Shown here piece after piece: positions 8,727-17,245 of a stretch of 64,000 bases of DNA (positions within the stretch are counted from its first letter, which is position 1; each line of letters begins with the position of its first letter). Position numbers and translations under genes: made by a program. Origin of the DNA: a virus; the IMG/VR virus record IMGVR_UViG_3300044213_000170, positions 1 to 64,000 of that record; one strand, given 5' to 3'. The notes under the pieces are model-generated. The model ran no database searches. It saw only the letters and a list, made by a program, of their open reading frames with translations, and was not told the DNA's origin.

Positions 8727-10799
8727 TTATTTAGATTGTGCTCTGAAAACACCATCCCAATTGTCAGGCAAGCCGGCTTGACGCATTTCCTCTATACGTT
8801 CTAACCATAGACTATAATAGTTGTCCAATTGCCCATCAAACTCCCCGATTAAATCGTTAACTTGCTGCACTGCAAGGTCCCAATCTTGTCTTCGGTAGGA
8901 TGCTAACATTTCTTCATGGCCCTCTCGTGCCAATAACCATTCAGTTACTGAATTCCCCGAAGATGGCATATTTAGAACAGTATATATAGTTACCCCTTCT
9001 GTTTTTCCTTTTACTGCAATACAATCTAATTCAATGGTAAAAAATTCATCGCCGACTCGTTCTGCGGTAACTGGACCTAATACTATAAGAACTCCGTAAT
9101 TTTTACTTTGCCCTTCGAGCCTACTAGCCAAGTTAACAGCATCTCCAAGGCAGGTATAATCAAACCTCTGCTCACTACCCATGTTGCCAACCACGACAAC
9201 GCCAGTATTAATACCAATGCCCATCCCGAAAGGCGGAGTGCCTTCAGCGGAAATTTCTTTATTAAATTCATCCAAGCTCCCTATCATTTCTAATGCCGAT
9301 TTTACTGCCTCTTTGCAATGTACAGTATTATCCAATGGACTATTCCAGAATGCCATTTGAGCATCCCCGATATACTTATCTAACGTACCATTATTTTCTA
9401 ATATCTTTTTGGTCATTGCTGTCATATAGCGGTTCATAATCTTTGTCAGCCCTTGCACATCTTTCCCGTAGTGTTCACTGATACCGGTGAATCCTCGAAC
9501 ATCACTAAAGAGTATTGTCAATTCTTTTTCCTCGCCACCTAACCTTAATAGACTGGGATCCTTGACTAACTTAGCTACCAAGTCAGGACTTAAGTATGTG
9601 GAAAATTGCTTTCTGATCTGTTGTTTTTGTAAAAATTCCGACACAAATTTTACTATATAGGCGTGCAATGCTACTAATAGTAATCCTACTGCAACAAATG
9701 TGCTATCTAATAATATTAGATAATGACTGTATGCATATATGCTGCCGATTATTACACCCGATATGATAATCAATGATGCAAATATTCCTACATATACCCA
9801 TCTCATTAAACATATTAAAACGATTCCCGCCAATGCCAAAATATAAATCTCAATTTGATCTGCATCACCAGGTCTGGAAATGGCACGACCATTTAATAGC
9901 GTGCCCAAGAGACTGGCTTGTAAATATTGCGGCCATACTTCGCCTTTGGCTGTTGCAATAGGTTGAACTAATCCTGCCGCACTGAGTCCTACTACAACAA
10001 TTTCTTTATTGAATGTTGTTGGTAAGTTCATCAACGAAAACTCTGTGGGTGTTGAACTCCAGTCTATCCAAACTCTACTTATTGGGTCTATAGGTATCTT
10101 ATTTAATTTAGGAATACGAATTGCATCGATTCCAGCGCCAGTCACTTTTACTTGAATTCGAGAATCGCCCACACCTACACGTAATGTTTCCAATGCCAAT
10201 GAAGGATGTATATTTTCCCCTGTTTGAATAATCATTGGTATGCGACGAACAACACCATCAATTTCTGGGAATGTGTTAACAATACCGACACCAGCGGCCC
10301 TGTCACTTATTTCATTAACTGATGAAATTAATCCGGGATAGTTAACTAATGATTCTTCTATACCTGTTCCGATAACTTGCACAGGACTACCTGCATCTAT
10401 ATTTTTACTTTTCATACTACCTAGCGCAGGTAACACTACTGGGTATTTTTCTAAAGTTTTTTCTAATATGCTGTCTTTGTTGAATCTATCTTTTTCCGGC
10501 ATCAATACATTGAACACTACTAAACCCGCATCTCTTTTATATAAGTCTTGTATGATCTGTGCATATATGTCTCTGGGGAACGGAAACTGACCGTACTTGT
10601 CCAATGATGCTTCATCGATATTGACTGTATTTACTGGTACTCGACTGGTGGGTTGATTGATAATTAATTGATCGAAATATCTTAATCTGACAGATTCTAT
10701 AAAACTCGGATCCCATGCTCGCATAGCTAGTAAGATAGCTAGTGTAACTAATGCACCCCAGGGGTTTAGTAATATTTTTTTAATTGAAAGTTTTTTCAT
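8727..10799 (-). CDS. CHASE2-domain class III adenylate cyclase, membrane-bound
   Basis: CHASE2 motifs (IDEASL..GQFPFPR, DGVVRR), TM helices, and catalytic FSDVRGFT, LDKYIGDA, DYTCLGDAVNLASRLE and VKGK. The Lys/Asp specificity pair indicates ATP. Confidence 0.93.
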   Translation of the reverse strand: MKKLSIKKILLNPWGALVTLAILLAMRAWDPSFIESVRLRYFDQLIINQPTSRVPVNTVNIDEASLDKYGQFPFPRDIYAQIIQDLYKRDAGLVVFNVLMPEKDRFNKDSILEKTLEKYPVVLPALGSMKSKNIDAGSPVQVIGTGIEESLVNYPGLISSVNEISDRAAGVGIVNTFPEIDGVVRRIPMIIQTGENIHPSLALETLRVGVGDSRIQVKVTGAGIDAIRIPKLNKIPIDPISRVWIDWSSTPTEFSLMNLPTTFNKEIVVVGLSAAGLVQPIATAKGEVWPQYLQASLLGTLLNGRAISRPGDADQIEIYILALAGIVLICLMRWVYVGIFASLIIISGVIIGSIYAYSHYLILLDSTFVAVGLLLVALHAYIVKFVSEFLQKQQIRKQFSTYLSPDLVAKLVKDPSLLRLGGEEKELTILFSDVRGFTGISEHYGKDVQGLTKIMNRYMTAMTKKILENNGTLDKYIGDAQMAFWNSPLDNTVHCKEAVKSALEMIGSLDEFNKEISAEGTPPFGMGIGINTGVVVVGNMGSEQRFDYTCLGDAVNLASRLEGQSKNYGVLIVLGPVTAERVGDEFFTIELDCIAVKGKTEGVTIYTVLNMPSSGNSVTEWLLAREGHEEMLASYRRQDWDLAVQQVNDLIGEFDGQLDNYYSLWLERIEEMRQAGLPDNWDGVFRAQSK

Positions 10800-10817
10800 T
10801 TTAAATTATTGACGATA

Positions 10818-11150
10818 TCAGAAAGAAGAAACCTTCTTTCCTAAATTAAATCTAGTAGAGTCACTACCCGACCCAATTAAACAAGCGACTTCGTCGTTCA
10901 TTTGAATAATAGTCCAGGTTTTAGTTTTACTATTGACCATGAGCACGAAGCTGCTGTTGGTCTCAGCATCTTTACCGCCCCACGCAGGGACTTCTTCATA
11001 ATCCTCGCCTAATAAGAATTCTACAATGACCGATGTTTCGCCACAATAAATCTTCTTAGTAGCGGCAAATATTTCTGCTGCACTTGCTGTACTGTAAATC
11101 GCCAAAAGTAATGCTAATCCGCTTAATAATTTTGAAAACTTCATGATCAT
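10818..11150 (-). CDS. Small secreted protein with two Cys
   Basis: Signal peptide (..ASA-AE); position in the operon. Confidence 0.6.
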   Translation of the reverse strand: MIMKFSKLLSGLALLLAIYSTASAAEIFAATKKIYCGETSVIVEFLLGEDYEEVPAWGGKDAETNSSFVLMVNSKTKTWTIIQMNDEVACLIGSGSDSTRFNLGKKVSSF

Positions 11151-11172
11151 CGATCCTTAAAATAGTATTTAC

Positions 11173-16284: not shown

Positions 16285-16584
16285 TTGGAATTTTTAATAA
16301 ATACCATTATGGACTTTTTTAAATTAGTAGCAGAATTAGGATTTCCGATAGCAGCCGCGTTAGGCGCCGGATATTTTGTATTTTTGACCTTAAAATTTAT
16401 TCTTGCTGGTGTTACATCTAGTGTAAACAGTATGGGCGGAATTATTAAAGGTTTAGATGCACGTGTAGACACCATGACCAATCAACTGCAACGAATTGAT
16501 GTAAAAGTTAGCCATGGGTTGGGGTTACAGCCAGATTACGATAGAATAGCAAGAGCCAAACAATCGGATCAGCGTAAGGATTAA
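16285..16584 (+). CDS. TM plus coiled-coil protein, paralog of the next gene
   Basis: LGFPIAAA.G.GYFV helix followed by heptad repeats. Confidence 0.65.
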   Translation: MEFLINTIMDFFKLVAELGFPIAAALGAGYFVFLTLKFILAGVTSSVNSMGGIIKGLDARVDTMTNQLQRIDVKVSHGLGLQPDYDRIARAKQSDQRKD

Positions 16585-16586
16585 AA

Positions 16587-16946
16587 ATGAGTAATGATCT
16601 AGTAGAAATAGTCAATAAGTATGGATTTCCGGTCATTGCCGCCGGCGGGTTAGGTTATTTTGTCTACTATATTTGGAAATGGGTAACCACAGAAATCAAA
16701 CCAGTAATAGGACAAGCCAATGGAACTCTCATCGCTCTTATTGACCGAATTCGTATGCTCGATAATGATCTTATACGTCTTAACCAAAAAGTAGAAACCG
16801 TAATGGAACTACGCGGTAAGAGTATTGAATTTGAACGTATTAAAGCTGAACAAGAAATTAACAAAGCTGCCGCGGCGGAACAACAAATCGGCAGACATAG
16901 AAAAGCTACTAAAGCCGAAATTCGAAGTTCAGCAGGCGACGATTAA
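16587..16946 (+). CDS. TM plus coiled-coil protein
   Basis: YGFPVIAAGGLGYFV helix; LIDRIRMLDNDLIRL coiled coil. Confidence 0.7.
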   Translation: MSNDLVEIVNKYGFPVIAAGGLGYFVYYIWKWVTTEIKPVIGQANGTLIALIDRIRMLDNDLIRLNQKVETVMELRGKSIEFERIKAEQEINKAAAAEQQIGRHRKATKAEIRSSAGDD

Positions 16947-17245
16947 TTATTAATTCTTGCTAAAATTTCGTCGTAAAAGGTGTCCATTTCGCCACCGAAT
17001 TTTCCTTTTAATTCTTCACCTAAGAATTTGCAAAGAGTAGTATTATTTCCGGTATACGCTGCAATAAACGCCTTATGTAGATCTTTAAGGCGATCTAAAT
17101 CATTGAGATCAACCAATGGTGTATTTTCTAAGACACAATATGCAGTGATCGTTTTATCATCACCCACACTAAAAGTTTCTAGTTCAAGTACTATGTAATT
17201 TTCTTGAATTTGTTTTAAATTTTCATCACCCAATATGATATTCAT
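16943..17245 (-). CDS. Stand-alone homolog of the adenylate cyclase C-terminal tail
   Basis: Aligns by eye over its full length to the last ~120 aa of 8727..10799. Confidence 0.7.
   Translation of the reverse strand: MNIILGDENLKQIQENYIVLELETFSVGDDKTITAYCVLENTPLVDLNDLDRLKDLHKAFIAAYTGNNTTLCKFLGEELKGKFGGEMDTFYDEILARINN

Follow-up and report, generated by a model that had tools for sequence, protein, structure and literature searches.

A curli secretion, FecR-domain and CHASE2 adenylate cyclase module in a large-genome freshwater phage and its possible relation to cellular envelope signalling

The curli secretion proteins CsgF and CsgG were described in pelagimyophages by Zaragoza-Solas et al. 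(2020; PMC7029224), and Wittmers et al. (2022; PMC9599517) set out a larger gene set comprising a 'histidine kinase', CsgF, CsgG, CsgA/B, FecR, a second CsgA/B and an adenylate cyclase. This type VIII secretion system (T8SS) module is found in both podo- and myo-pelagiphages, its parts co-vary across ocean stations, its transcripts are present in marine metatranscriptomes, and phage curli genes account for about 0.1% of the assembled viral proteins in ocean viromes (PMC9599517). Buchholz et al. (2022; PMC9004378) found the module in the phage Melnitz and proposed that it has a role in lysis timing. Here we consider a group of genes of this type at positions 8727–17245 of a 64,000-nucleotide stretch of viral DNA (positions 1–64,000 of IMG/VR record IMGVR_UViG_3300044213_000170, referred to here as the window). 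The gene set is already known, as it matches the pelagiphage T8SS module (PMC9599517), and what is new is its freshwater giant-phage member.

A second group of related systems is found in cellular bacteria. Operons encoding a LysM-FecR protein and a CHASE2 histidine kinase occur in Burkholderia and Pseudomonas (PMC5192318), and in S. meliloti the CHASE2 cyclases CyaK and CyaD1/D2 depend for their signalling on the outer-membrane protein NsrA (PMC7529298, PMC13001267), with the FecR-domain protein SMc02177 placed in the same pathway as NsrA and the CHASE2 cyclases (PMC5498481). Together with the cellular operons described below, these three published systems indicate a recurrent envelope pathway consisting of an outer-membrane protein, a secreted FecR-domain protein and a CHASE2 receptor, and by analogy the comparison points to the phage T8SS occupying the outer-membrane position of this pathway. 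Our preferred but tentative reading is that the phage module exports lectin-headed fibres, that the FecR-domain protein links the apparatus in the outer membrane with the CHASE2 cyclase, and that the state of the envelope would thereby set the level of cyclic AMP (cAMP). Neither CHASE2 nor PA14 is mentioned in the papers on the phage module (PMC7029224, PMC9599517, PMC9004378), and the cellular FecR/CHASE2 parallel, the alignment of the Gly-Thr site, the swappable lectin-like heads and the true identity of the 'histidine kinase' as presented here were not found in the pelagiphage-module papers.

The run consists of eight genes on the minus strand (from 16258 to 8727, with a spacing of −4 to 30 bp between genes) which encode, in order, a 122-aa membrane protein, CsgF, CsgG, a curlin, a FecR-domain protein, a PA14-curlin, a 110-aa protein and a CHASE2 cyclase. 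An initial annotation made from the sequence alone had named the last seven of these (csgF, csgG, curlin, FecR, PA14-curlin, a small secreted protein and the CHASE2 cyclase), and each of them lies where it had been placed. Homologous genes are found in the same order in the cultured phages HTVC008M (gp011–019) and Melnitz (gp97–104) with 37–53% identity, as judged by tblastn and annotation, with a shared order of two small transmembrane (TM) genes, CsgF, CsgG, curlin, FecR, a second curlin and adenylate cyclase, and Pfam recognises CHASE2 and FecR in both phages and PA14 in HTVC008M. Publication of the module (PMC9599517) and its annotation in cultured phages make it less of a novelty than the initial annotation held. 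It nonetheless differs from the pelagiphage version in a number of ways: the window phage is from freshwater with relatives of ~330–345 kb, compared with 141–147 kb for the cultured marine phages; the pair of TM genes is inverted; and there are three extra genes, namely those for the 122-aa membrane protein, the 110-aa secreted protein and a free-standing copy of the cyclase tail.

Proteins from the window were compared by tblastn with 96 IMG/VR loci (the cyclase matches more than 599 stretches in IMG/VR), and co-occurrence was counted in 34 cyclase-anchored viral loci flanked on each side by 8 kb or more. Of these, 32 have CsgG and FecR, which always occur together (FecR was never seen without CsgG), while CsgF is present in 30 and the first curlin in 23 (a lower bound, as this sequence is divergent). 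The TM pair travels with the cyclase and was found in 34/34 loci. In the two loci without a nearby CsgG, the gene lies 15–18 kb off in the same record, and CsgG, FecR, the cyclase and the TM pair share a genome in all 34 testable viral loci, which upholds the linkage between csgFG and the FecR and cyclase genes on which the initial annotation had relied. The gene arrangement recurs in dozens of related viral contigs and is therefore far beyond chance. We note that a profile scan of genome contigs with the cyclase alignment found only three contigs (L100, L101 and L102), all from metagenome-assembled genomes (MAGs) labelled 'Bacteroidetes'. Each has a phage-type cyclase, the two longer contigs add phage-type CsgG and FecR, and L100 also has the TM pair and CsgF. 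These contigs are probably phage DNA binned with a bacterium and so say little about the cellular origin of the module, and they could be a hint of the host phylum or the result of mis-binning.

The cellular parallel was surveyed in 151 genomes from the phylum of these MAGs, 69 of which have CHASE2 proteins, and 40 loci were fetched. All 40 encode a CHASE2 cyclase, which in 34/40 retains the same C-terminal tail as the phage cyclase, and in 29 of these loci the upstream genes belong to the family that includes the FecR proteins. The full co-oriented operon, found in 26–27 loci, encodes a protein of ~395 aa, a FecR-domain protein of ~250 aa (Pfam-confirmed in 2/2 cases tested), a protein of 800–918 aa and then the cyclase. 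Most of the 800–918-aa proteins have signal-peptide-like N-termini, together with a C-terminus of the outer-membrane-barrel type (e.g. ...RYLFNF). When the profile of these proteins was compared with the sequences of solved structures the match was limited to a short N-terminal Ig-like stretch of peptidylarginine deiminase, and no Pfam family was found among their Atlas neighbours. BLASTP comparison of the window module proteins (including CsgG, CsgF, the curlins and the TM pair) with the cellular operon proteins gave matches for the cyclase and FecR only. The phage and cellular cyclases have the same CHASE2 domain, TM helices, class III domain and tail with 26–31% identity, and both systems place a secreted FecR-domain gene with an invariant Gly-Thr beside the cyclase. 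A third, outer-membrane component takes part in the cellular systems (from the operon data and PMC7529298), but in place of the 800–918-aa barrel-like protein the phage has CsgG, CsgF and the curlins. These operons support the periplasmic go-between that the initial annotation had envisaged in the FecR-domain protein, whereas its account of FecR and CHASE2 as sensors of curli was overstated.

In a further group of cellular loci (L146–L150, from genomes G111, G067, G071, G017 and G022), small lipoprotein-like proteins are encoded 1–4 kb from the CHASE2 gene. They match just the N-terminal half of the CsgG Pfam model (26–56 bits), which LpoB and FlgO also match, and five such loci were found compared with ~0.7 expected by chance among ~115 CHASE2 sites. 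On these sequence matches, CHASE2 receptors may pair with CsgG-fold periplasmic proteins in cells too.

The phage FecR-domain protein (12579–13697, minus strand; 372 aa, Pfam FecR 44.6 bits) consists of a signal peptide, a FecR-like beta domain, a low-complexity helical linker and a C-terminal beta domain. Some 17 signal-peptide residues precede the FecR beta domain, the Pfam FecR match begins at residue 50, and there is no other hydrophobic segment; hydropathy, Pfam and alignment gave no TM segment, membrane anchor or cytoplasmic anti-sigma part. Its sequence indicates that it is not an anti-sigma factor. Residues G131-T132 align exactly with G181-T182 of E. coli FecR, which is the mapped self-cleavage site of that protein (PMC12036975), and neither residue varies among the 48 phage and cellular FecR partners compared. 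The signal peptide, the Gly-Thr motif and the lack of an anti-sigma part had all been noted in the initial annotation and stand. The model of the protein matches the signalling domain of PupR (6ovk; Z 15.8, root-mean-square deviation (rmsd) 2.4, 135 residues aligned), and also BDI_1681 (4m0n; Z 14.3). A profile search with FecR against solved-structure sequences gave no match at E≤1. A search for homologs returned more than 7,400 FecR protein clusters, but as the best 120 matches are all close viral relatives, this search stopped short of cellular homologs.

The first beta-sandwich of the model (residues 16–111) was also seen to superpose on 5ix9 (Z 10.8, rmsd 2.1, 73/76 residues, 25% identity), a periplasmic 'plug' domain that keeps the giant adhesin MpIBP from leaving its outer-membrane pore (PMC5550230). 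This modelled likeness may be that of a mere shared fold, or may be a hint that the domain is seated under an outer-membrane channel.

Unlike the cellular FecR partners of ~250 aa, the phage protein adds the linker and the C-terminal domain. This second beta domain is found in 14/14 aligned phage homologs and is predicted at a pLDDT (predicted local distance difference test) of 87, and fold searches against solved structures found no relative (Foldseek E≥0.14; best VIA Z 3.5). We considered whether it might be curlin-like and rejected this (profile-profile probability 2%), as just its last 11 residues, with a G-S-I-x-I-x-Q-like end, resemble curlin ends.

These features bear on the suggestion that FecR is a regulator of the ferric citrate type which ties the T8SS to iron, or that an open CsgG channel imports cofactors or siderophores. 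The idea was put forward because of the name FecR and because iron matters in the ocean (PMC9599517). In FecA-FecR-FecI, PupR and FoxR the periplasmic FecR fold and the Gly-Thr site are shared with the phage protein, as is the logic of a periplasmic protein linking an outer-membrane part to an inner-membrane or cytoplasmic output. In contrast to Fec-type signalling, however, the phage lacks an anti-sigma domain, a membrane anchor, an extracytoplasmic function (ECF) sigma factor and a TonB-dependent transducer, and its output would be the CHASE2 cyclase rather than a sigma factor. There was no match to an ECF sigma factor (Sigma70_r2) in the 145.4-kb record from which the window is taken, in agreement with the initial annotation, and Pfam found no TonB-dependent transducer in the run. 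The cellular relatives, furthermore, sit with CHASE2 receptors, and the operon genes tested with Pfam gave no iron-uptake family. With a signal peptide as its only hydrophobic segment, the phage protein fits an iron regulator poorly, and we regard this explanation as very improbable.

The inner-membrane CHASE2 receptor adenylate cyclase (8727–10799, minus strand; 690 aa, Pfam CHASE2 114.9 bits and Guanylate_cyc 71.8 bits) has a TM helix at residues 8–26, a periplasmic CHASE2 domain (the Pfam match covers residues 19–326), a hydrophobic block at ~316–395, a class III catalytic domain at 425–606 and a tail at ~610–690. Hydropathy peaks at residues 328–346 and 360–378 fall within the hydrophobic block, which we read as three TM helices. 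The window copy has the metal-binding D433 and D479, the substrate-specifying K475 and D547, and N556 and R560, with each of the six kept in 13–15 of 15 aligned sequences; these positions were assigned by analogy with class III cyclases in general. From these residues the enzyme looks active and adenine-specific. No cyclic nucleotide monophosphate (cNMP)-binding protein was found in the 145.4-kb record.

The curli export genes can be compared with csgDEFG-csgBAC of E. coli, with which the phage shares the CsgG lipoprotein channel, the CsgF motif and curlins with QxGxxN repeats. CsgG (14530–15342, minus strand; 270 aa, Pfam 161.8 bits) is an outer-membrane lipoprotein channel whose match spans profile positions 8–205 of 210, and it has 37% identity with E. 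coli CsgG and keeps the lipobox G18-C19 and the FSTAV.Q loop. (The CsgG of a 344-kb relative, L036:4096-5223, is 375 aa long with a C-terminal extension of ~100 residues that is not seen in the window copy or in E. coli CsgG.) CsgF (15353–15859, minus strand; 168 aa, Pfam 36.9 bits with a cut-off of 25.8) has the N-terminal CsgG-binding motif F-x-x-P-x-F-x-G (F29, P32, F34 and G36), which is invariant in an alignment including E. coli CsgF. The first curlin (13707–14510, minus strand; 267 aa with a signal peptide) reaches just E=0.14 with Pfam Curlin_rpt, but we regard it as a true curlin subunit because the repeated QxGxxN motifs are invariant in its family and the family profile matches the solved structures of a curlin-repeat protein (8c50, E=1.4e-14) and the CsgA fibril (8enq, E=0.002).

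The second, adhesin-type PA14-curlin (11173–12582, minus strand; 469 aa, Pfam PA14 51.3 bits and Curlin_rpt 33.5 bits) has a signal peptide, a PA14 lectin-like domain, a Thr-rich linker and curlin repeats, and gp018 of HTVC008M has the same PA14 and curlin architecture in Pfam. The head of this protein varies between phages, with PA14 in the window, HTVC008M and four other loci, F5/8 type C domains in L026 and L041, and unassigned N-terminal domains elsewhere; PA14 is not therefore a constant part of the module, as the PA14 hidden Markov model found the domain in just four further loci. Judging from these domains, swappable lectin-like heads fit a fibre that binds something, probably glycans, and the lectin-tipped second curlin of the initial annotation is borne out to that extent. 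We infer from these genes that the module would make extracellular curli fibres.

Compared with the E. coli system, the phage run lacks CsgE, CsgC and CsgD and adds the lectin-like head on one curlin, the FecR-domain protein and the receptor cyclase. CsgE is a periplasmic adaptor and an accessory part of the E. coli T8SS. No match to CsgE (PF10627) was found in the 145.4-kb record, which is 42% complete, using a search that recovered the E. coli control, and this extends an absence that the initial annotation had reported for the window; CsgC and CsgD were not among the Pfam matches in the run.

On our preferred reading, the infected cell would export the curlins to form surface fibres with a glycan-binding head, and the FecR-domain protein, located in the periplasm, would act as the coupler between the outer-membrane curli apparatus and the CHASE2 domain, possibly cleaving itself at G131-T132 in the manner of FecR. 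How much cAMP the infected cell makes would then depend on the state of the envelope or of the fibre apparatus. As no phage cNMP-binding protein was found, cAMP would have to work by way of host receptors or of a phage target that was not recognised. A direct contact, as implied by the relay in the initial annotation, was modelled using residues 27–322 of the cyclase (CHASE2) and 18–215 of the FecR-domain protein, and gave a median score of 0.43 compared with 0.01 for the best control, with at least 91% of contacts agreeing between runs and a partner pLDDT of at least 79. In the calibration of these scores the mark was reached by 58/80 solved complexes and 2/110 mismatched pairs, but scores of 0.60 or less that reached the mark came from just 7/80 solved complexes and from both of the mismatches. 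By this calibration the prediction lends weak, model-based support for contact.

A more elaborate version would have the FecR-domain protein as a self-cleaving periplasmic tether joining the curli apparatus to the cyclase, so that the phage would have a trans-envelope sensor of its own, with fibre assembly or binding of the lectin-headed fibre to a neighbouring cell or particle producing a pulse of cAMP which, together with the TM pair, could feed into the timing of lysis or other late events, the barrel protein of the cellular pathway having been replaced by a T8SS. We think this unlikely as a whole, and the sensing of neighbours or superinfection and the tuning of lysis suggested in the initial annotation are purely speculative.

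A number of observations weigh against our preferred reading, and several of them favour its main rival, in which two independent functions have been co-inherited. In this explanation the T8SS block, comprising CsgF, CsgG, the curlin, FecR and the adhesin-curlin, makes fibres (for aggregation as 'sibling capture', or to block superinfection). The CHASE2 cyclase and TM pair separately sense some other periplasmic cue and reprogram host metabolism through cAMP, and the FecR-domain protein assists the T8SS in the periplasm in place of CsgE or CsgC, which are missing. Four of the viral loci have split modules (L004, L024, L025 and L028), with the T8SS/FecR block 11–18 kb from the cyclase/TM-pair block; FecR and the second curlin are on the CsgG side of the split and the TM pair is on the cyclase side. 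As FecR remains with CsgG in these split modules, it may primarily serve the T8SS. Podophage versions of the module often lack the cyclase but always have FecR (PMC9599517). The strict association of FecR with CsgG, the lack of CsgE in the record, and the C-terminal domain that is missing from cellular CHASE2-linked FecR proteins would also be expected of a T8SS accessory. However, both blocks co-occur in every genome tested, the cellular FecR-domain proteins partner CHASE2 receptors in operons and not the T8SS (PMC5192318), and the Gly-Thr site and FecR fold are common to phage and cellular partners. Two independent functions are the main rival to coupling, favoured by the split modules and the cyclase-less podophage modules, and we consider this explanation doubtful, though far from negligible.

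The remaining difficulties concern individual links in the proposed pathway. The outer-membrane-barrel nature of the cellular 800–918-aa protein is read from its termini only, and in S. meliloti SMc02177 is dispensable for plant-signal perception (PMC5498481). The complex score lies in a range where passes are more often wrong unless contact is likely beforehand. A cAMP receptor or other cNMP-binding protein was not found in HTVC008M, Melnitz or three large relatives (some of these records being 99% and 92% complete), and no clumping of Melnitz-infected cells was seen by Buchholz et al. (PMC9004378). The fibres, the cAMP and the FecR–CHASE2 contact in phages are predictions from sequence and models. 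Overall, the gene-level observations of the initial annotation are confirmed and its interpretation is partly supported.

The two small TM/coiled-coil proteins next to the run, encoded on the plus strand at 16285–16584 (99 aa; phrog_18771, E=3.7e-29) and 16587–16946 (119 aa; phrog_18771, E=2.4e-33), are paralogs with 30% identity (E=2e-12), as had been recognised in the initial annotation. They are the most conserved part of the module, with up to 92% identity in relatives. The pair is apparently inverted in this phage, because in many relatives it is co-oriented directly upstream of CsgF. It has no HisKA or HATPase domain in Pfam searches up to E=10, and the Melnitz pair likewise has no HisKA or HATPase_c match up to E=0.01; the proteins from the window and Melnitz are just 92–119 aa. 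The published 'histidine kinase' is probably this TM pair, which has no kinase domains, with the two being equated by gene position.

The conservation of the pair is relevant to a further explanation in which CsgG and CsgF form a repurposed, gated lysis-timing pore of the pinholin or secretin type, with the TM pair as holin and antiholin, cAMP as a timing input and the fibres secondary. This follows from the structure modelling and synteny used to propose such a role in Melnitz (PMC9004378), and the nearest named Atlas families of the 119-aa protein, YvrJ (0.85) and Holin_BhlA (0.83), point in the same direction, although these scores are below the meaningful level of the tool and are leads only (the nearest Atlas clusters are viral, with scores of ~0.97). 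A possible late-promoter motif is a further point in its favour. The 122-aa gene and the first TM-pair gene start 26 bp apart and run in opposite directions, and the gap between them (16259–16284) holds TATAAATA, the T4-type late-promoter consensus, at 16264–16271 on the minus strand. Only 5 nt lie between this motif and the downstream annotated ATG of the 122-aa gene, which is too short for a normal leader, and the motif occurs eight times across the window compared with a chance mean of 10.3, i.e. not above chance, and is a weak lead. Scans for sigma-70 promoters and terminators gave counts at or below shuffle expectation. Against a lysis pore, distant phages retain curlins with invariant amyloid-repeat motifs and swappable lectin-like heads which would be superfluous for a pore, and holins act on the inner membrane, not on the outer membrane where CsgG is located. 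We therefore think a lysis pore improbable, and both it and the iron regulator fit the anatomy of the module less well.

Three further genes are additional to those of the module in the cultured phages. The first gene of the run (15890–16258, minus strand) encodes the 122-aa membrane protein, which belongs to phrog_2470 'membrane protein' (E=1.9e-15) and is present in 10/34 related loci. The initial annotation had labelled it DUF3307, and this label is not supported, as DUF3307 was not matched even at E≤10; the best Pfam match is to EI24 (E=0.0065), which is below the cut-off. The 110-aa protein (10818–11150, minus strand) has a signal peptide in the form of an N-terminal hydrophobic segment, matches no Pfam or PHROG family and is found in 2/34 related viral loci, and is an accessory, lineage-specific protein. 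The free-standing paralog of the cyclase C-terminal tail (16943–17245, minus strand; 100 aa) matches cyclase residues 572–669 in BLASTP with 27% identity (E=8e-8), in keeping with the cyclase-tail paralog of the initial annotation, and is present in 8/34 related viral loci.

The record of which the window forms the first 64 kb is 145.4 kb long and has a CheckV completeness of 42%, and related viral records are 328–344 kb at 92–99% completeness, with complete relatives of ~330–345 kb. Sampled words from the region were found in two freshwater metagenome runs from other studies (84% and 49% present), and these matches and the size of the relatives (328–344 kb) indicate a freshwater phage with a large genome. 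There was no near-identical DNA to the region in 50,697 phage records, where relatives were found at the protein level only. The region is flanked by T4-like replication genes including a UvsW-like helicase, a DnaB-like helicase and ribonucleotide reductase. We note that the UvsW-like helicase open reading frame (ORF) at 55940–56956 has Hint and intein-splicing domain matches at its C-terminal end and that neighbouring ORFs continue on the same strand, and from its sequence the region at 55013–58008 looks like an intein-containing or split helicase gene. A 704-aa protein encoded at 46825–48939, within DNA of raised G+C (0.43–0.46), contains collagen triple-helix repeats (101 bits), weakly matches the Peptidase_G2 autoproteolytic domain, and is probably a fibre protein.

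The phage curli genes are abundant, and the window adds freshwater giant phages to the known range of the module. Instead of an 'iron regulator' and a 'histidine kinase', our comparison proposes the model of a three-part envelope pathway; what it contributes is a sharper, testable mechanism rather than the discovery of the module. If the model is true, the module would be a phage-encoded sensory pathway reading the cell surface, and the poorly understood CHASE2 and secreted FecR-domain families would gain both a partner and a function.

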